Shown here piece by piece: positions 39 to 36,836 of a stretch of DNA of 64,000 nt. The position numbers and the translations under genes were made by a program. The notes under the pieces were generated by a model. It made no database searches and was not told the DNA's origin. It worked only from the letters and a program-made list of their open reading frames with translations. The DNA lies in the NCBI RefSeq assembly GCF_003334315.1, contig NZ_QOWR01000016.1, one strand, 5' to 3'. Numbering within the stretch: the stretch's first letter is position 1; every line of letters starts with the position of its first letter. This DNA is from Escherichia coli. Its GTDB lineage: Bacteria; Pseudomonadota; Gammaproteobacteria; Enterobacterales; Enterobacteriaceae.

Positions 39-889
39 GGTTTACGTTTTTCCAGCGTACGATGGCGTGACTGGACGTTTTTACCGCGCGAGCGGAAGTA
101 GTCTGCCAGTTGCTCTGCAATATACACCGAACGGTGCTTCCCGCCGGTACAACCAATGGCGACCGTCAAGTAGCTACGGTTGTTGGTTTCCAGCATAGGT
201 AACCATAGCTCAAGATAGCTTCGCGTCTGGTAGATAAAATTGTGTACTTCTGTGTGGCGGTCGAGGAACGCGGCGACAGGTTTATCAAGACCTGTCATTG
301 GACGCAGTTTCGGATCCCAGTGCGGGTTCGGCAAGAAGCGCACGTCAAAGACGTAATCTGCATCGATAGGGATACCGTGTTTGAAGCCGAAAGACTCAAA
401 GACCATGGTCAGTTCGCGTTCACGTTTACCCAGCAGACGGGTACGCAGCATTTCAGCCAGCTCGTGAACGGACATTTCTGAGGTATCGACAATCAGATCC
501 GCTCGCGAACGCAGAGGCTCCAGCAAATCGCTTTCTTTGTCGATAGCACTTTCCAGCGACAGGTTTTTGCTGGAAAGCGGATGCAGTCGGCGCGTGTCAC
601 TGTAACGACGAATTAAGGTATTACGGTCGGCATCCAGGAACAGGAGTTGCGGTGAGAAAGCGTCAGGCAGGTTACTCATCGCCTGTTCGAATATTTCTGG
701 TGACTCCGGCATATTACGAACATCAATGCTGACGGCGGCAGAAATCTCGCGATCGGCCAGGGTTCGAGCCAGATCGGGTAACAACACTACGGGAAGGTTA
801 TCCACGCAGTAAAAACCCATATCTTCCAGCGCACGCAGGGCGACAGATTTACCTGAACCTGAACGTCCGCTGACGATCATCAGTACCAT
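35..889 (-). CDS. rapZ: RNase adaptor protein RapZ (YhbJ), P-loop NTPase
   Basis: 284-aa [18 protein letters not shown]alker A; recognised as E. coli RapZ; synteny with ptsN/hpf/rpoN. Confidence 0.95.
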
Positions 890-934
890 GTACTGTTTCT
901 CCTCACAACGTCTAAAAGAGACATTACCGAATAA

Positions 935-1426
935 CTACGCTTCATCCGGAGTACCTTCGGTATCCGTAATGATTTGATACAGCTCTTCATCGCTCTGGGC
1001 TGCGCGTAAACGGCGGCAGATGGTTTTGTCCGCCAGACGTTTCGCCACCAGCGACAGAGTATGCAGGTGCGTTTTAGTTTGGTCTGCCGGCACCAGCAGG
1101 GCAAAAAGTAAGTCCACCGGTTGGTTGTCGATGGCATCGAAAGCTATAGGCGTTTCGAGCTGAACGAAAACGCCAACGGCGCGCAGAGTATCTTCTTCCA
1201 GTTTGCCATGCGGAATGGCAATACCATTGCCGATACCGGTACTGCCCATTTTTTCCCGCGTCAGGATAGCTTCAAAAACCACCTGAGGCGGCAGGCTAAG
1301 TTGTTTCGCCGCCAGCTCGCTGATGATTTCCAGGGCGCGTTTTTTGCTCTGACAGTGGACGCGGCTTCGCGTACATTCCCTGTTAAGAACACTGCTAAGC
1401 TGTAGAGTTGTATCATTATTTGTCAT
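935..1426 (-). CDS. ptsN: PTS EIIA-Ntr nitrogen regulatory protein
   Basis: Track ORF 935..1450 trimmed to internal Met giving 163 aa starting MTNNDTTLQLSSVL; matches E. coli PtsN. Confidence 0.95.
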   Translation of the reverse strand: MTNNDTTLQLSSVLNRECTRSRVHCQSKKRALEIISELAAKQLSLPPQVVFEAILTREKMGSTGIGNGIAIPHGKLEEDTLRAVGVFVQLETPIAFDAIDNQPVDLLFALLVPADQTKTHLHTLSLVAKRLADKTICRRLRAAQSDEELYQIITDTEGTPDEA

Positions 1427-1543
1427 AATTTCACCTAAGAACCTGCCCACTCAAACAGTGGAACAGGCTCGGAGCATTAACCGTACAAATGGCCCGTTGT
1501 GCCGCACAACAGGCCGCCATGCACATGCTAATTGCCCGGACAA

Positions 1544-1831
1544 TTAGTGTTGTTTCAGTTTATCTTTATGTTTGGTCAACTGGCGTGCCAGCTTATCAAT
1601 TAAGCCATCAATGGCAGCGTACATGTCCTGACCTTCCGCGCTGGCATGAATTTCACCACCGTTTACATGCAGTGTTGCATCTGAGGTGTGGGTGACTTTC
1701 TCCACTTTCAGAACAACATAGACCTGGTTGATTCGGTCAAAATATTGCTCAAGTTTGGCAAATTTGGCTGTAACAAATTCGCGCAGTGCCTCGGTGATCT
1801 CGACGTTATTTCCGGTAATGTTGAGCTGCAT
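1544..1831 (-). CDS. hpf: Ribosome hibernation promoting factor
   Basis: Track ORF trimmed to Met giving 95 aa MQLNITGNNVEITEALREFV; matches E. coli Hpf (YhbH). Confidence 0.95.
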   Translation of the reverse strand: MQLNITGNNVEITEALREFVTAKFAKLEQYFDRINQVYVVLKVEKVTHTSDATLHVNGGEIHASAEGQDMYAAIDGLIDKLARQLTKHKDKLKQH

Positions 1832-1853
1832 AGTGTCTTCCTTATCGGTTGGG

Positions 1854-3287
1854 TCAAACGAGTTGTTTACGCTGGTTTGACGGCGGAATGGATAAAGACT
1901 CTCGGTACTTCGCAACAGTGCGGCGTGCCACCATGATACCTTGTTCCGACAGCAAAGAGGTTAACTTGCTGTCGCTCAACGGTTTCGCTGGGTTTTCCGC
2001 CGCGATTAATTTCTTCACCAGCGCACGAATCGCCGTGGAGGAAGCTTCGCCGCCGCCCTCGGTATTGACGTGACTGGAAAAGAAATACTTCAGTTCAAAA
2101 ATGCCTCGTGGACTATGCAGGTATTTTTGCGTGGTCACGCGAGATATCGTCGATTCATGCATTTCGACAGCCTGGGCGATATCGGCCAGTACCATCGGTT
2201 TCATATATTCTTCACCTTGCTCAAAGAAGGCTTGCTGCTGTTCAACGATACAGCGACTCACGCGCAGTAGCGTATCGTTACGGCTTTCCAGACTCTTGAT
2301 CAACCATTTGGCATCCTGCAGATTGCTGCGGATAAACTGGCTGTCACCATCGTTGCGCGCGTTATTGCACATCGAGGCGTAGTGCTGGTTGATTTGCAGA
2401 CGCGGAATGCTGTCACTGTTGAGTTCTACCGTCCAGTGACCGTTATGCTTACGCACCAGCACATCTGGAATGACATACTCAGGTTCGCCAGTCTGGATCG
2501 ACTGCCCGGGGCGCGGATCGAGCGACTGGATCAGATTGACGGCTTCTTTCAGCACATCTTCTTTCAGACGCGTGACGCGCATTAAAGTGCGGAAGTCGTG
2601 ATTGGCTAACAGATCGAGATGATCGCTAATGATCAGTCTGGCCTCTTCCAGCCACGGCGTGGTCTTATCGAATTGGGAGAGTTGGATCAGCAGACAGTCA
2701 CGCAGATCTTTTGCCGCCACACCGACCGGATCAAACCGTTGGATCCGCTTAAGGACGGCTTCAACTTCGTCGATGTCGATCTCTTCATCGCCTATACTTT
2801 CGAGAATATCTTCCAGCGGGACAGTCAGATAACCGGTTTCATCAACGGCATCGACGATAGAGGTAGCAATAGCGCGGTCAGTGTCGGAAAACGGTGTCAG
2901 CTCAACCTGCCACATCAGGTAATCCTGCAAGGTCTGCGTCGTTTCGCCCTGGTAGACCGGCAGCTCGTCGTCAATGTAGTCACCGCTGGTGCCGGATGGT
3001 GTACCAGCGGTGTAAATGGTGTCCCAACTGGCATCGAGCGGCAGCTCTTCCGGCATCTCTTTTTGTTCGAGCGCGTCGGCGGTGTCCAGCGTTTCACTGT
3101 CTTGCGTTTCGCGGGTGTCGATTTCTTCATGAGTGTCGATTTGCTCAAGCAGCGGATTACTCTCCAGCGCCTGCTGTAGCTCCTGCTGAAGTTCCAGCGT
3201 CGACAACTGCAACAGACGAATTGCCTGTTGGAGCTGTGGCGTCATCGCCAGTTGTTGGCTAAGCCTGAGTTGCAAACCTTGCTTCAT
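1854..3287 (-). CDS. rpoN: RNA polymerase sigma-54 factor
   Basis: 477-aa ORF with Gln-rich N-terminus and C-terminal RpoN box region ([10 protein letters not shown]); matches E. coli RpoN. Confidence 0.97.
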
Positions 3288-3334
3288 GTTCAGAATCGTA
3301 CTCTCCTGCTAAAACGTCGCAAACTTCTACCCTA

Positions 3335-19042: not shown

Positions 19043-19118
19043 AATCTCGCGCTAACAACCTGGAATCGAGCCGTCATACTACGGCGCAACGCCCTATAAA
19101 GTAAACGATGACCCTTCG

Positions 19119-19146
19119 GGAACTTCAGGGTAAAATGACTATCAAA
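19119..19146 (+). promoter_or_regulatory. Candidate sigma-E (sigma-24) promoter upstream of greA
   Basis: GGAACTT -16 nt- TCAAA matches the sigma-E -35/-10 consensus; greA is a reported sigma-E regulon member. Confidence 0.6.
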
Positions 19147-19161
19147 ATGTGAATTGTAGCT

Positions 19162-19197
19162 GACCTGGGACTTGTACCCGGGTCGGTATTTTTTTGC
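19162..19197 (+). terminator. graL: Intrinsic terminator/attenuator in greA leader (end of GraL leader RNA)
   Basis: GC-rich hairpin GACCTGGGACTTGTACCCGGGTC followed by a run of 8 T, about 100 nt upstream of the greA start. Confidence 0.6.
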
Positions 19198-23093: not shown

Positions 23094-23942
23094 ATGAAAC
23101 TCTTTGCCCAGGGTACTTCACTGGACCTTAGCCATCCTCACGTAATGGGGATCCTCAACGTCACGCCTGATTCCTTTTCGGATGGTGGCACGCATAACTC
23201 GCTGATAGATGCGGTGAAACATGCGAATCTGATGATCAACGCTGGCGCGACGATCATTGACGTTGGTGGCGAGTCCACGCGCCCAGGGGCGGCGGAAGTT
23301 AGCGTTGAAGAAGAGTTGCAACGTGTTATTCCTGTGGTTGAGGCAATTGCTCAACGCTTCGAAGTCTGGATCTCGGTAGATACATCCAAACCAGAAGTCA
23401 TCCGTGAGTCAGCGAAAGTTGGCGCTCACATTATTAATGATATCCGCTCCCTTTCCGAACCTGGCGCTCTGGAGGCGGCTGCAGAAACCGGTTTACCGGT
23501 TTGTCTGATGCATATGCAGGGAAATCCAAAAACCATGCAGGAAGCTCCGAAGTATGACGATGTCTTTGCAGAAGTGAATCGCTACTTTATTGAGCAAATA
23601 GCACGTTGCGAGCAGGCGGGTATCGCAAAAGAGAAATTGTTGCTCGACCCCGGATTCGGTTTCGGTAAAAATCTCTCCCATAACTATTCATTACTGGCGC
23701 GCCTGGCTGAATTTCACCATTTCAACCTGCCGCTGTTGGTAGGTATGTCACGAAAATCGATGATTGGGCAGCTGCTGAACGTGGGGCCGTCCGAGCGCCT
23801 GAGCGGTAGTCTGGCCTGTGCGGTCATTGCCGCAATGCAAGGCGCGCACATTATTCGTGTTCATGACGTCAAAGAAACCGTAGAAGCGATGCGGGTGGTG
23901 GAAGCCACTCTGTCTGCAAAGGAAAACAAACGCTATGAGTAA
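23094..23942 (+). CDS. folP: Dihydropteroate synthase
   Basis: Track ORF trimmed to [32 protein letters not shown] giving 282 aa; matches FolP. Confidence 0.95.
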
Positions 23943-25272
23943 TCGTAAATATTTCGGTACCGATGGGATTCGTGGTCGTGTAGGGGATGCGCCGATCACA
24001 CCTGATTTTGTGCTTAAGCTGGGTTGGGCCGCGGGTAAAGTGCTGGCGCGCCACGGCTCCCGTAAGATCATTATTGGTAAAGACACGCGTATTTCTGGCT
24101 ATATGCTGGAGTCAGCACTGGAAGCGGGTCTGGCGGCAGCGGGCCTTTCCGCACTCTTCACTGGCCCGATGCCAACACCGGCCGTGGCTTATCTGACGCG
24201 TACCTTCCGCGCAGAGGCCGGAATTGTGATATCTGCATCGCATAACCCGTTCTACGATAATGGCATTAAATTCTTCTCTATCGACGGCACCAAACTGCCG
24301 GATGCGGTAGAAGAGGCCATCGAAGCGGAAATGGAAAAGGAGATCAGCTGCGTTGATTCGGCAGAACTGGGTAAAGCCAGCCGTATCGTTGATGCCGCGG
24401 GTCGCTATATCGAGTTTTGCAAAGCCACGTTCCCGAACGAACTTAGCCTCAGTGAACTGAAGATTGTGGTGGATTGTGCAAACGGTGCGACTTATCACAT
24501 CGCGCCGAACGTGCTGCGCGAACTGGGGGCGAACGTTATCGCTATCGGTTGTGAGCCAAACGGTGTAAACATCAATGCCGAAGTGGGGGCTACCGACGTT
24601 CGCGCGCTCCAGGCTCGTGTGCTGGCTGAAAAAGCGGATCTCGGTATTGCCTTCGACGGCGATGGCGATCGCGTGATTATGGTTGACCATGAAGGCAATA
24701 AAGTCGATGGCGATCAGATCATGTATATCATCGCGCGTGAAGGTCTTCGTCAGGGCCAGCTGCGTGGTGGCGCTGTGGGTACATTGATGAGCAACATGGG
24801 GCTTGAACTGGCGCTGAAACAGTTAGGAATTCCATTTGCGCGCGCGAAAGTGGGTGACCGCTACGTACTGGAAAAAATGCAGGAGAAAGGCTGGCGTATC
24901 GGTGCAGAGAATTCCGGTCATGTGATCCTGCTGGATAAAACTACTACCGGTGACGGCATCGTTGCTGGCTTGCAGGTGCTGGCGGCTATGGCACGTAACC
25001 ATATGAGCCTGCACGACCTTTGCAGCGGCATGAAAATGTTCCCGCAGATTCTGGTTAACGTACGTTACACCGCAGGTAGCGGCGATCCACTTGAGCATGA
25101 GTCAGTTAAAGCCGTGACCGCAGAGGTTGAAGCTGCGCTGGGCAACCGTGGACGCGTGTTGCTGCGTAAATCCGGCACCGAACCGTTAATTCGCGTGATG
25201 GTGGAAGGCGAAGACGAAGCGCAGGTGACTGAATTTGCACACCGCATCGCCGATGCAGTAAAAGCCGTTTAA
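23935..25272 (+). CDS. glmM: Phosphoglucosamine mutase
   Basis: 445-aa [20 protein letters not shown] with active-site SASHNP; matches GlmM; overlaps folP 3' end. Confidence 0.97.
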
Positions 25273-25499: not shown

Positions 25500-25832
25500 A
25501 TGTACGAAGCTCTTTTAGTAGTTTTCCTTATTGTGGCAATTGGCCTTGTTGGTCTGATCATGCTGCAGCAAGGTAAAGGCGCTGATATGGGAGCCTCCTT
25601 CGGAGCAGGCGCTTCCGCTACGCTGTTTGGTTCAAGTGGTTCTGGTAACTTCATGACCCGCATGACGGCGCTGCTGGCAACGTTATTCTTCATCATCAGT
25701 CTGGTGCTGGGTAACATCAATAGCAACAAAACCAATAAAGGTAGCGAATGGGAAAATCTGAGTGCACCGGTGAAAACCGAACAAACTCAACCAGCTGCTC
25801 CGGCTAAGCCGACCAGCGATATCCCGAACTAA
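25500..25832 (+). CDS. secG: Protein translocase subunit SecG
   Basis: Track ORF trimmed to MYEALLVVFLIVAIGLVGLIMLQQGKGADMG giving 110 aa; matches SecG. Confidence 0.95.
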   Translation: MYEALLVVFLIVAIGLVGLIMLQQGKGADMGASFGAGASATLFGSSGSGNFMTRMTALLATLFFIISLVLGNINSNKTNKGSEWENLSAPVKTEQTQPAAPAKPTSDIPN

Positions 25833-25846
25833 AAAGTAGTATCCGT

Positions 25847-25933
25847 GCCGAGGTGGTGGAATTGGTAGACACGCTACCTTGAGGTGGTAGTGCCCAATAG
25901 GGCTTACGGGTTCAAGTCCCGTCCTCGGTACCA
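25847..25933 (+). tRNA. leuU: tRNA-Leu
   Basis: GCCGAGGTGGTGGAATTGGTAGACACGCTACCTTGAGGTGGTAGTGCCCAATAGGGCTTACGGGTTCAAGTCCCGTCCTCGGTACCA: long-variable-arm class II tRNA with CCA end, immediately 3' of secG as for E. coli leuU. Confidence 0.9.
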
Positions 25934-25941
25934 AATTCCAG

Positions 25942-25975
25942 AAAAGAGACGCTGAAAAGCGTCTTTTTTCGTTTT
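25942..25975 (+). terminator. Intrinsic terminator after leuU tRNA
   Basis: AAAGAGACGCTGAAAAGCGTCTTTTTTCGTTTT. Confidence 0.75.
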
Positions 25976-26391
25976 GGTCCTGGTCTGAGGAATGGTTGTC
26001 AGGTATCTGTATCTCGTCCAGTTGCTTTACTCGTAGCTGGTACCTTGAAACGATGGTGCCGGTACGCCTTAGTTATAAACTTTTCCCTTCTGCTGACATA
26101 ATTGGCACTTTATTGTGTCAACTCCAGTTCCGGTACGAATACGGATATGTTTACTTCTCGATAAACCATCCTGCTCCTGTCAGTATAACTACTGATGGCT
26201 ACGTTCTGCGTAATGTTTAGAGACGCATTGATAATGTTATTTAATTACTGAGAACGCAATGGCCGCATCATTTAAAAAGAAAAAACTAACAGTGTTTCGG
26301 TCTGATATGGATCAGAGTTGAAAAACATGTCTGATATAAAATTAAACATTGTTGATAATTGTTTATATTGGTTGTGAACTTGGATTTCTGG

Positions 26392-28017
26392 ATGACAGTA
26401 TTCAACAAATTTGCTAGAACTTTTAAATCTCATTGGTTGTTGTATCTTTGTGTTATTGTTTTTGGTATTACGAACTTAGTCGCTTCTTCCGGAGCGCATA
26501 TGGTTCAGCGCTTGCTGTTCTTCGTTCTGACCATCCTGGTTGTAAAACGTATATCATCCCTTCCGCTTCGCCTGCTTGTTGCCGCACCATTTGTGTTACT
26601 GACTGCGGCAGACATGAGTATTAGCCTCTATTCATGGTGTACCTTTGGTACAACTTTCAATGATGGATTTGCGATTAGTGTGCTCCAGAGTGATCCGGAT
26701 GAAGTTGTCAAAATGCTGGGGATGTATATCCCTTATCTATGTGCCTTTGCTTTTTTATCCCTTCTTTTTTTGGCAGTAATAATAAAATATGATGTTTCCT
26801 TGCCGACAAAAAAAGTGACAGGAATATTATTGCTGATTGTCATTTCGGGCAGTTTATTTTCCGCTTGTCAATTTGCTTATAAAGATGCAAAAAATAAAAA
26901 AGCGTTCAGTCCATATATACTAGCGTCGCGATTTGCTACCTATACGCCGTTTTTCAATCTCAACTATTTTGCTTTAGCAGCGAAAGAGCATCAAAGATTA
27001 CTCTCAATTGCAAACACGGTGCCGTATTTTCAATTATCAGTCAGGGATACAGGTATTGATACCTACGTGTTGATTGTGGGGGAGTCTGTACGTGTCGACA
27101 ATATGTCTTTGTATGGATATACACGCTCTACGACACCGCAAGTTGAAGCACAAAGAAAACAGATCAAACTGTTTAATCAAGCAATAAGCGGCGCACCTTA
27201 CACTGCGCTGTCGGTTCCCCTTTCTTTAACTGCTGATTCTGTTTTGAGTCATGACATTCATAATTACCCCGACAACATTATTAATATGGCTAATCAAGCA
27301 GGATTTCAGACTTTCTGGCTAAGCTCGCAATCCGCTTTTCGGCAGAATGGTACAGCAGTTACCAGTATCGCCATGCGCGCCATGGAAACAGTTTATGTCA
27401 GAGGATTTGATGAATTGTTGTTGCCGCATTTATCGCAAGCATTACAGCAAAATACGCAGCAAAAGAAACTGATTGTTCTTCATTTAAATGGAAGCCATGA
27501 ACCGGCTTGTAGCGCCTATCCGCAATCCAGCGCCGTGTTTCAACCGCAGGACGATCAGGATGCCTGCTATGACAACTCCATTCATTACACAGATAGTTTG
27601 CTAGGTCAGGTTTTTGAATTATTAAAAGATCGCCGCGCCTCGGTCATGTATTTTGCCGACCACGGCCTGGAACGTGACCCTACGAAGAAGAACGTCTATT
27701 TTCATGGAGGCAGGGAGGCTAGCCAGCAGGCATATCATGTCCCGATGTTTATCTGGTATAGCCCCGTTCTTGGGGATGGCGTGGATCGCACAACGGAAAA
27801 CAACATCTTTTCGACAGCTTACAATAATTACCTTATTAATGCGTGGATGGGGGTAACAAAGCCGGAACAGCCGCAAACGCTTGAGGAAGTGATTGCACAC
27901 TATAAAGGAGACTCACGGGTTGTGGATGCAAACCATGATGTTTTCGATTATGTGATGCTCAGAAAGGAGTTTACAGAGGATAAGCAAGGTAACCCCACCC
28001 CTGAAGGGCAGGGTTGA
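26392..28017 (+). CDS. yhbX: Inner membrane sulfatase/phosphoethanolamine-transferase-family protein (OpgE/EptA-like)
   Basis: 541-aa product from ATG MTVFNKFARTFKSHWLL with N-terminal TM helices and C-terminal sulfatase-like domain; matches YhbX; track ORF begins 11 codons upstream at a non-ATG codon. Confidence 0.85.
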   Translation: MTVFNKFARTFKSHWLLYLCVIVFGITNLVASSGAHMVQRLLFFVLTILVVKRISSLPLRLLVAAPFVLLTAADMSISLYSWCTFGTTFNDGFAISVLQSDPDEVVKMLGMYIPYLCAFAFLSLLFLAVIIKYDVSLPTKKVTGILLLIVISGSLFSACQFAYKDAKNKKAFSPYILASRFATYTPFFNLNYFALAAKEHQRLLSIANTVPYFQLSVRDTGIDTYVLIVGESVRVDNMSLYGYTRSTTPQVEAQRKQIKLFNQAISGAPYTALSVPLSLTADSVLSHDIHNYPDNIINMANQAGFQTFWLSSQSAFRQNGTAVTSIAMRAMETVYVRGFDELLLPHLSQALQQNTQQKKLIVLHLNGSHEPACSAYPQSSAVFQPQDDQDACYDNSIHYTDSLLGQVFELLKDRRASVMYFADHGLERDPTKKNVYFHGGREASQQAYHVPMFIWYSPVLGDGVDRTTENNIFSTAYNNYLINAWMGVTKPEQPQTLEEVIAHYKGDSRVVDANHDVFDYVMLRKEFTEDKQGNPTPEGQG

Positions 28018-28024
28018 TGTCGAA

Positions 28025-29383
<1,359 letters not shown>

Positions 29384-29792: not shown

Positions 29793-29913
29793 CTTTCCCT
29801 TAGAGTCCTTTTTCAAATATACTGTGAAGACTTCGGCCTTCGTAGTGGGATTTGAAAAAATCCTTCTGGAAAGTGCTCCAGACCGCAGTTGCGGTTATAG
29901 GGTTCAGTTATAT

Positions 29914-29940
29914 AAAGCCCCGATTTATCGGGGTTTTTTG
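29914..29940 (+). terminator. Intrinsic terminator/attenuator between metY and rimP
   Basis: AAAGCCCCGATTTATCGGGGTTTTTTG hairpin plus T-tract. Confidence 0.7.
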
Positions 29941-29998
29941 TTATCTGACTACAGAATAACTGGGCTTTAGGCCCTTTTTTTATGTCTTGGGGGTGGGC

Positions 29999-34663: not shown

Positions 34664-34681
34664 GGTTTTTAGGGTTCCATG

Positions 34682-34757
34682 CGGGATAAGGCGTTTACGC
34701 TGCATCCGGCATGGATTGCCTGATGTGACGCTGGCGCGTCTTATCAGGTCAACGTGA
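34682..34757. repeat. REP element between infB and rbfA
   Basis: CGGGATAAGGCGTTTACGCTGCATCCGGCA ... GCCTGATGTGACGCTGGCGCGTCTTATCAGGTC. Confidence 0.75.
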
Positions 34758-36224: not shown

Positions 36225-36590
<366 letters not shown>

Positions 36591-36606: not shown

Positions 36607-36635
36607 AAAAGGGGGCCTGAGTGGCCCCTTTTTTC
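36607..36635 (+). terminator. Intrinsic terminator after rpsO
   Basis: AAAAGGGGGCCTGAGTGGCCCCTTTTTTC. Confidence 0.8.
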
Positions 36636-36836
36636 AAGCTGACGGCAGCAATTCACTGGAAACTAATGTATTGTTGCTATGAATGATCTTCCGTTGCAGA
36701 GGTTCGCGCGGCTAATGAGAGGCTTTACCCACATAGAGCTGGGTTAGGGTTGTCATTAGTCGCGAGGATGCGCAGAAGATCGGGTATTAACACCAGTGCC
36801 GTAAGGTACTGTCTAAGAAAGAGAAAGGATATTACA
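36636..36836 (+). promoter_or_regulatory. pnp 5' leader (autoregulatory region with RNase III-processed stem-loop; sRNA SraG reported in this intergenic region)
   Basis: About 200-nt untranslated region between rpsO terminator and the UUG start of pnp; regulatory role is from published E. coli work, not seen directly. Confidence 0.5.

Follow-up and report, generated by a model that had tools for sequence, protein, structure and literature searches.

The 416-bp interval between the leuU terminator and yhbX of Escherichia coli (positions 25976-26391 of the 64,000-nucleotide stretch of DNA analysed here, hereafter the window) is in all likelihood ordinary non-coding upstream DNA of an accessory yhbX cassette, with a promoter and leader in its proximal part, filler in its distal part and an ORF that is open by chance. 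According to this model, the proximal part (26221-26391) would provide the core promoter (26331-26359) and a short 5' UTR of yhbX with a weak Shine-Dalgarno (SD) sequence. The distal part (25976-26220) would be weakly constrained filler that arrived together with the cassette, and it may add a weak sigma-32-type promoter (26043-26072). An antisense transcript coming out of yhbX would be stopped by Rho within the spacer.

Anatomy of the leuU-yhbX locus

The locus is the leuU-yhbX locus of E. coli, reversed in orientation relative to K-12, and a window position is converted into an MG1655 version 3 coordinate by subtracting it from 3348005. On the plus strand, glmM (23935-25272) and secG (25500-25832) precede leuU, the gene for tRNA-Leu(GAG) (25847-25933; identified by ARAGORN, by the Rfam tRNA model with 52.8 bits and by the RefSeq annotation), which closes the secG-leuU unit and is the upstream neighbour of the spacer. 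Not a single SNP was found in leuU among eight E. coli sequences. The intrinsic terminator of leuU (25941-25975, plus strand) consists of a 13-pair hairpin (25941-25970) followed by TTTTTTCGTTTT, and the hairpin has the strongest local fold z-score (-3.9). Because the hairpin and TTTTTTCGTTTT precede position 25976, the unassigned interval is exactly 25976-26391, as delimited in an earlier reading made from the sequence alone: the terminator ends at 25975, and the ATG of yhbX is located at 26392 according to both PGAP and the K-12 annotation. The RefSeq-annotated yhbX gene (26392-28017, plus strand) encodes 541 amino acids and faces argG on the minus strand (28025-29368). The same reading called the intergenic stretch long, with which we agree, as the 458 bp between leuU and yhbX are long for E. 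coli. The K-12 RefSeq annotation, which includes curated sRNAs and small proteins, is empty between leuU and yhbX.

The spacer was aligned from 14 E. coli strains picked across the identity range, and each of these sequences was inspected at the level of single bases. Comparisons are confined to the species, since no genome from outside E. coli was retrieved, and conservation is thus judged among E. coli sequences of at least 97% identity. The distal spacer (25976-26220, about 44-47% GC) is fast-evolving and weakly constrained, with SNPs at 5.7% of the sites (14/245) as opposed to 2.9% in the proximal spacer (26221-26391) among eight strains. The latter, the upstream region of yhbX on the plus strand, is AT-rich (about 32% GC) and carries 2-bp and 1-bp indels at 26255-56, at 26278-79 and after 26284, which mark it as non-coding.

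YhbX is an inner-membrane protein of the phosphoethanolamine-transferase family with the sulfatase fold. It matches the NCBIfam models P_eth_NH2_trans, CptA and EptA at the domain level, all below the equivalog cut-offs, as well as Pfam PF00884. The matches listed by a YhbX protein search were all from E. coli and rounded to 100% identity. A scan with YhbX peptides found no relative among the species-representative contigs, a collection from which Escherichia seems to be absent. The SNP density of yhbX (6.35%) is similar to that of the distal spacer, and the SNPs in its first 300 nt are distributed over the three codon positions as 5:5:9. Annotations of strains 99-3311 and O145 RM9873-C1 mark the gene as frameshifted, and insertions of IS5 (SWYHX138.261ft) and IS26 (Z1323CEC0017) break it in other strains. 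yhbX thus appears to be weakly constrained and often broken, and fast-evolving filler in front of it is no surprise.

The spacer and yhbX form a replaceable cassette

At an identity of at least 97%, 5179 of the 5426 complete E. coli genomes contain the spacer and the other 247 lack it; it occurs once per genome and always beside yhbX. In three genomes the match reaches only 80-90% identity; these could be divergent lineages, or the matches could be partial or spurious. In place of the entire block between 25976 and the final two argG codons, strain Ec40743 (L002, 6043-7211) and a stray contig (L010) carry an unrelated gene; it codes for 317 aa with an Xre-type HTH at the N-terminus, and the other residues, about 270, are unassigned apart from weak matches to PADLOC candidate families. 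The locus has therefore at least two alternative contents, one of which is the spacer with yhbX. Homology between the two alleles stops exactly at 25975, directly after the leuU terminator, and the spacer has no homology to the alternative HTH allele. At the right junction (28018-28033), the argG product ends in ...NKGQ* in the window but in ...NKVK* in the alternative allele. The stop codons of yhbX and argG are convergent and 7 nt apart, and published Term-seq data place the 3' end of argG about 37 nt inside yhbX (MG1655 3320017-19, plus strand). From the spacer into the 5' half of yhbX the GC content is 32-44%, versus about 52% in the flanks. Because the spacer and yhbX are always linked, are replaced jointly and are low in GC, we consider them to be one acquired, replaceable cassette (25976-28030), with the left edge after the leuU terminator and the right edge within the two terminal argG codons. 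The gap between leuU and yhbX is the upstream part of this cassette. We also looked for an exact 26-nt pattern of the leuU 3' end and trailer among the species-representative contigs. It had one match, in the 1.5-kb contig L010 with the alternative allele; this contig is E. coli-like and filed under a Collinsella MAG, probably as a result of contamination.

The cassette resembles tRNA-adjacent genomic islands in being a variable low-GC block with alternative contents directly downstream of a tRNA gene. It differs from them in several respects: the junction follows the terminator instead of lying within the 3' end of the tRNA, an integrase and a direct repeat of the tRNA end are absent, yhbX is the only gene within about 2 kb, and the cassette reaches into the last codons of argG.

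The position of the distal spacer at the edge of a replaceable cassette beside a tRNA gene could also indicate that 25976-26220 is a decayed gene or the end of a mobile element, which arrived with yhbX and is now functionless. The GC content of 44-47% between the AT-rich promoter region and the core genome, and the SNP density close to that of the weakly constrained yhbX, are in line with such an origin. However, the plasmid and phage collections contained nothing similar to the spacer other than records of E. coli chromosomal type, and E. coli genomes have no further copy of it. The sole long frame of this segment, the one of the six frames that was compared, has no protein-level similarity. 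Likewise, no integrase, no tRNA-derived direct repeat and no meaningful or terminal repeats were detected in the cassette. We therefore regard a decayed remnant as unlikely and prefer to view the distal spacer as weakly constrained filler of the cassette.

Candidate promoters and leader of yhbX

The sequence-only reading had taken the interval for the yhbX promoter and 5' UTR. The linkage within one cassette, the AT-rich and better conserved proximal part with its sigma-70-like site, and the weak in vitro binding of RNAP-sigma32 holoenzyme to the spacer (PMC5493296) speak for this assignment; the promoter itself is a predicted one. A sigma-70-like site on the plus strand (26331-26359; CTGATA-17-GATAAT) with 9/12 matches is the only promoter-like match in 25800-26500, where 1.4 are expected by chance. 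Both hexamers are unchanged in the 14 E. coli sequences, and the SNPs at 26344 and 26345 fall between them. Transcription from this site is predicted to start at about 26366, which would leave yhbX with a leader of about 25 nt and a weak SD sequence. It is probable that 26221-26391 comprises the core promoter and the short 5' UTR of yhbX. The supplements of Kim 2012, of SMRT-Cappable-seq and of Romero 2014 contain no entry for yhbX or leuU and no mapped transcription start site (TSS) of yhbX, so the promoter positions rest on consensus matches that are no commoner than chance.

The spacer is similar to the ordinary promoter and 5' UTR of an acquired AT-rich gene in its AT-richness before the start codon, its sigma-70-like site and its short predicted leader. 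The length-polymorphic A-tracts, the linkage within one cassette and the Rho-ended antisense transcription described below are likewise features of ordinary upstream regions of acquired genes. It is unlike them in being 416 bp long, several-fold the length that a core promoter requires, and in the 245 bp of the distal part, which have no assigned role.

An imperfect palindrome, GGTCTGATATGGATCAGAG, is present in the proximal spacer at 26299-26318, and a second element, GTCTGATAT, lies 29 bp downstream (26329-26337), where it overlaps the predicted -35 hexamer. The palindrome and the repeat could be an operator; in some strains the palindrome carries SNPs at 26300 and 26313. A GalR operator listed for yhbX (PMC5110547) was also considered, and it falls in the 3' part of yhbX (27883-27898), not in the spacer.

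A hypothetical second promoter is the sigma-32-like motif CCTTGAAA-N14-CGCCTTAG at 26043-26072 on the plus strand, which points toward yhbX. Compared with the sigma-32 consensus that we used (CTTGAAA as -35 and CCCCATNT as -10, 13-15 bp apart), the -35 element is exact (26044-26050), and the -10 element CGCCTTAG has 4/7 matches at a spacing of 14 bp. Using an in vitro SELEX-chip assay, Shimada et al. located a weak RpoH-holoenzyme peak (3.2 versus a cut-off of 3.0) at 3319952, between yhbX and leuU, and attributed it to yhbX (PMC5493296). Assuming MG1655 version 2-like coordinates, 3319952 corresponds to about window position 26076. The rrmJ-yhbY peak of the same dataset fits what we take to be the version 2 positions of those genes. 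The motif together with the RpoH peak is suggestive but weak.

If this promoter (26043-26072) were used, the yhbX transcript would begin with about 310 nt of leader that span most of the spacer. This 5' UTR would be regulatory and might act through premature Rho termination or through pairing with an sRNA. Besides the orientation of the motif and the SELEX peak, this reading draws on the scarcity of the exact CTTGAAA heptamer (four on both strands of the 64-kb window, that is, in 128 kb of strand), on the fold z-score of the full spacer on the plus strand (-2.61; see below), on the excess of C over G on the plus strand between 26000 and 26200, and on a Rho-dependent 3' end in the 5' UTR of the paralogue eptB (Adams et al., bioRxiv 10.1101/2020.07.18.207399). 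Another of the CTTGAAA heptamers, at 36638 on the minus strand, is located inside SraG and gave no promoter lead. The eptB 5' UTR lies, as does the spacer, upstream of an enzyme of the same superfamily, and an eptB-like long leader of yhbX is conceivable if the sigma-32-like promoter is used. Unlike for eptB, however, neither a 3' end on the gene strand nor a Rho region in the 5' UTR has been reported for yhbX, and the two have no sequence similarity. Other observations also speak against this leader: the peak barely exceeds its cut-off and was obtained in vitro, the -10 element is poor, and SNPs at 26044, 26065 and 26071 cross the motif. Neither Term-seq 3' ends nor Rho regions are listed for the yhbX strand of the spacer, and the SMRT-Cappable-seq and Kim 2012 supplements have no yhbX TSS. 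Moreover, a cat cassette inserted between 26081 and 26082, which would sever the leader, served as a neutral ftsH-linked marker in otherwise wild-type MG1655 (Fivenson et al., bioRxiv 10.1101/2023.02.03.527047), with no consequence noted in a study that did not address yhbX phenotypes. We consider transcription of yhbX from the sigma-32-like site with a long regulatory leader quite unlikely. That YhbX, an orphan phosphoethanolamine transferase, would thereby be placed under heat-shock or envelope-stress control, possibly with attenuation by Rho or an sRNA, seems more doubtful still. If true, sigma-32 control would be the first regulatory handle on YhbX, an uncharacterised envelope-modification enzyme of E. 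coli. With the spacer read as an ordinary upstream region, the remaining biological thread is the transcription of the poorly expressed and weakly constrained yhbX, including the possible weak heat-shock promoter, and it is relevant only to envelope modification or to pervasive transcription in acquired DNA.

Antisense transcription and the small RNA question

Published DirectRNA-seq data recorded with and without bicyclomycin contain a Rho-dependent termination region on the minus strand of the spacer, centred at 26262 (Adams et al., Supplementary file 2). This region, at MG1655 3321743 (plus strand), is classified as 'orphan' with a Rho score of 2.86 (p 2.4e-5), and 199 reads upstream are reduced to 22 downstream (bioRxiv 10.1101/2020.07.18.207399). 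The data describe a low-level antisense transcript that exits the AT-rich 5' part of yhbX toward leuU and is stopped by Rho before it reaches leuU. Such antisense transcription is typical of pervasive transcription in AT-rich acquired DNA.

The earlier suggestion that the interval might hold an unannotated small RNA is not supported. A search of the spacer against Rfam gave no match, either at the gathering score or at E-values up to 10, and weak matches to STnc50 and isrK overlap the leuU terminator. A terminator scan of 25800-26500 returned only the terminator of leuU, and none was found in 25976-26500 on either strand. On the yhbX strand, the Term-seq tables list no 3' end from yhbX to the mature end of leuU (Adams et al., bioRxiv 10.1101/2020.07.18.207399). 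When the full 416 nt were folded and compared with shuffled sequences, z-scores of -2.61 and -0.26 were obtained for the plus and minus strands, respectively. The minimum among 120-nt windows of the spacer was -2.3, and in the rest of the window the mean was -0.41 with an SD of 1.23 and 8% of the 120-nt windows below -2. The RNA structure of the spacer is thus not exceptional and lies within the window background. RNA covariation has no power with sequences that are at least 97% identical.

An independent small regulatory RNA on either strand might still be argued for from the length of the intergenic region, from the plus-strand z-score over the full 416 nt and from the published minus-strand transcription. 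However, the minus-strand signal is the diffuse Rho-termination region of a low-abundance antisense transcript rather than a discrete RNA, the minus strand folds no better than shuffled sequences, and the local z-scores stay within the background. The indels and the SNP density of 5.7% speak against a constrained structure, and the lack of an Rfam family, of a terminator besides that of leuU, of a yhbX-strand 3' end and of any K-12 annotation points in the same direction. We judge such an RNA to be very unlikely.

The 74-codon frame is open by chance

The open frame of 74 codons noticed by the sequence-only reading (25996-26220, plus strand) is present in the ORF list. It does not start with ATG as was claimed, since 25996-25998 is TTG; the first in-frame ATG, at 26053, leaves 55 codons, and an ATG at 25992-25994 belongs to a different frame that opens only 14 codons. 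The described absence of a ribosome-binding site applies to the ATG at 26053, which has nothing SD-like before it, but not to the TTG, which has GAGGA 4 nt upstream (25987-25991). The TTG lies 20 nt beyond the strong leuU terminator, without room for a promoter. The richness in Cys and aromatic residues was confirmed by counting the translation (3 Cys and 12 Phe/Tyr/Trp per 74 residues), and it is the composition that any open frame on the T-rich non-coding strand yields. Among 5000 dinucleotide-preserving shuffles of the 416 bp, 8.7% contained a closed ORF of at least 74 codons (p about 0.09), so a frame of this length is no more than chance gives; the 64-kb window has 181 ORFs of at least 74 codons over its six frames.

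The frame is unbroken in 11 of the 14 strains that were read. A nonsense change of TGG to TGA at 26040 occurs in 99-3311 and O145 RM9873-C1, and a change of CAA to TAA at 26119, which shortens also the version starting at ATG 26053, occurs in SCU-316 and in a database protein from another strain (P0005). The only deletion seen in the ORF, of 6 bp at 26134-26139, is in-frame. Natural strains thus carry premature stops between conserved flanks, and the small-protein reading fails by the refutation test that the sequence-only reading had itself proposed. The 16 SNP sites of the ORF in the 14 sequences comprise 11 non-synonymous ones, two of them the nonsense changes, and 5 synonymous ones (pN/pS about 0.66); in this small sample they show no excess of synonymous or third-position changes as expected under purifying selection. 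They are distributed over the codon positions as 8:1:7, and those of the adjoining secG as 1:1:7, with 7/9 at third positions.

No family in Pfam or NCBIfam matches the ORF. A word-indexed search of 5.8e9 proteins found five entries, all of them E. coli-type stray gene calls with inconsistent ends (41, 56, 63, 105 and 109 aa), including the truncated version P0005 and a stop-loss version (P0002). A full HMMER pass over 1.84e9 representative proteins added one marginal match (P0126, E = 1.5e-4), a 322-aa repeat protein that we judged to be a chance match: it is a single match with 28 aligned residues, and its summed score is inflated by the 35-aa repeats of the subject. Apart from this match, no homologue of the ORF outside E. 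coli was found in the two collections. For MG1655 33217xx-33220xx, the supplement of Stringer et al. 2021 (Ribo-RET and similar methods) lists nothing, and the cat insertion of Fivenson et al. lies in the middle of the ORF. The ORF is not conserved and, as far as available data show, untranslated.

We conclude that these 74 codons are open by chance on a T-rich strand and that the ORF is not a gene. A small protein encoded in the spacer (74 aa from TTG 25996 with GAGGA, or 55 aa from ATG 26053), for which transcription would pass the leuU terminator or begin at an internal promoter and which might be the product of a young gene restricted to E. coli, is extremely unlikely: the open frame with its SD-like GAGGA, its retention in most strains with a lone in-frame deletion, and the scarcity of SNPs at second codon positions (1/16; not significant, chi-square p about 0.07) are outweighed by the nonsense alleles at both sites, the stop-loss version, the 11/16 SNPs that alter the protein, the missing homologues and domains, a length expected by chance, the TTG close behind a terminator, the ATG without SD, the Ribo-RET supplement without an entry and a tolerated cat disruption. 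The ORF shares with spurious 'hypothetical protein' calls in intergenic DNA the sporadic calls with differing ends and without a domain, the Cys/Phe/Tyr skew from T-rich DNA and the stop codons segregating in the population, with no notable difference from them. One candidate for a small protein or sRNA can thus be struck off the list.

A scan of the whole window against Rfam at the gathering level returned known elements only, all outside the spacer, in addition to two tRNAs: the greA leader (19073-19194, plus strand), the rimP leader (29881-29981, plus strand), naRNA4 (34680-34750, plus strand), the S15 leader (36263-36377, plus strand) and SraG (36607-36778, minus strand).
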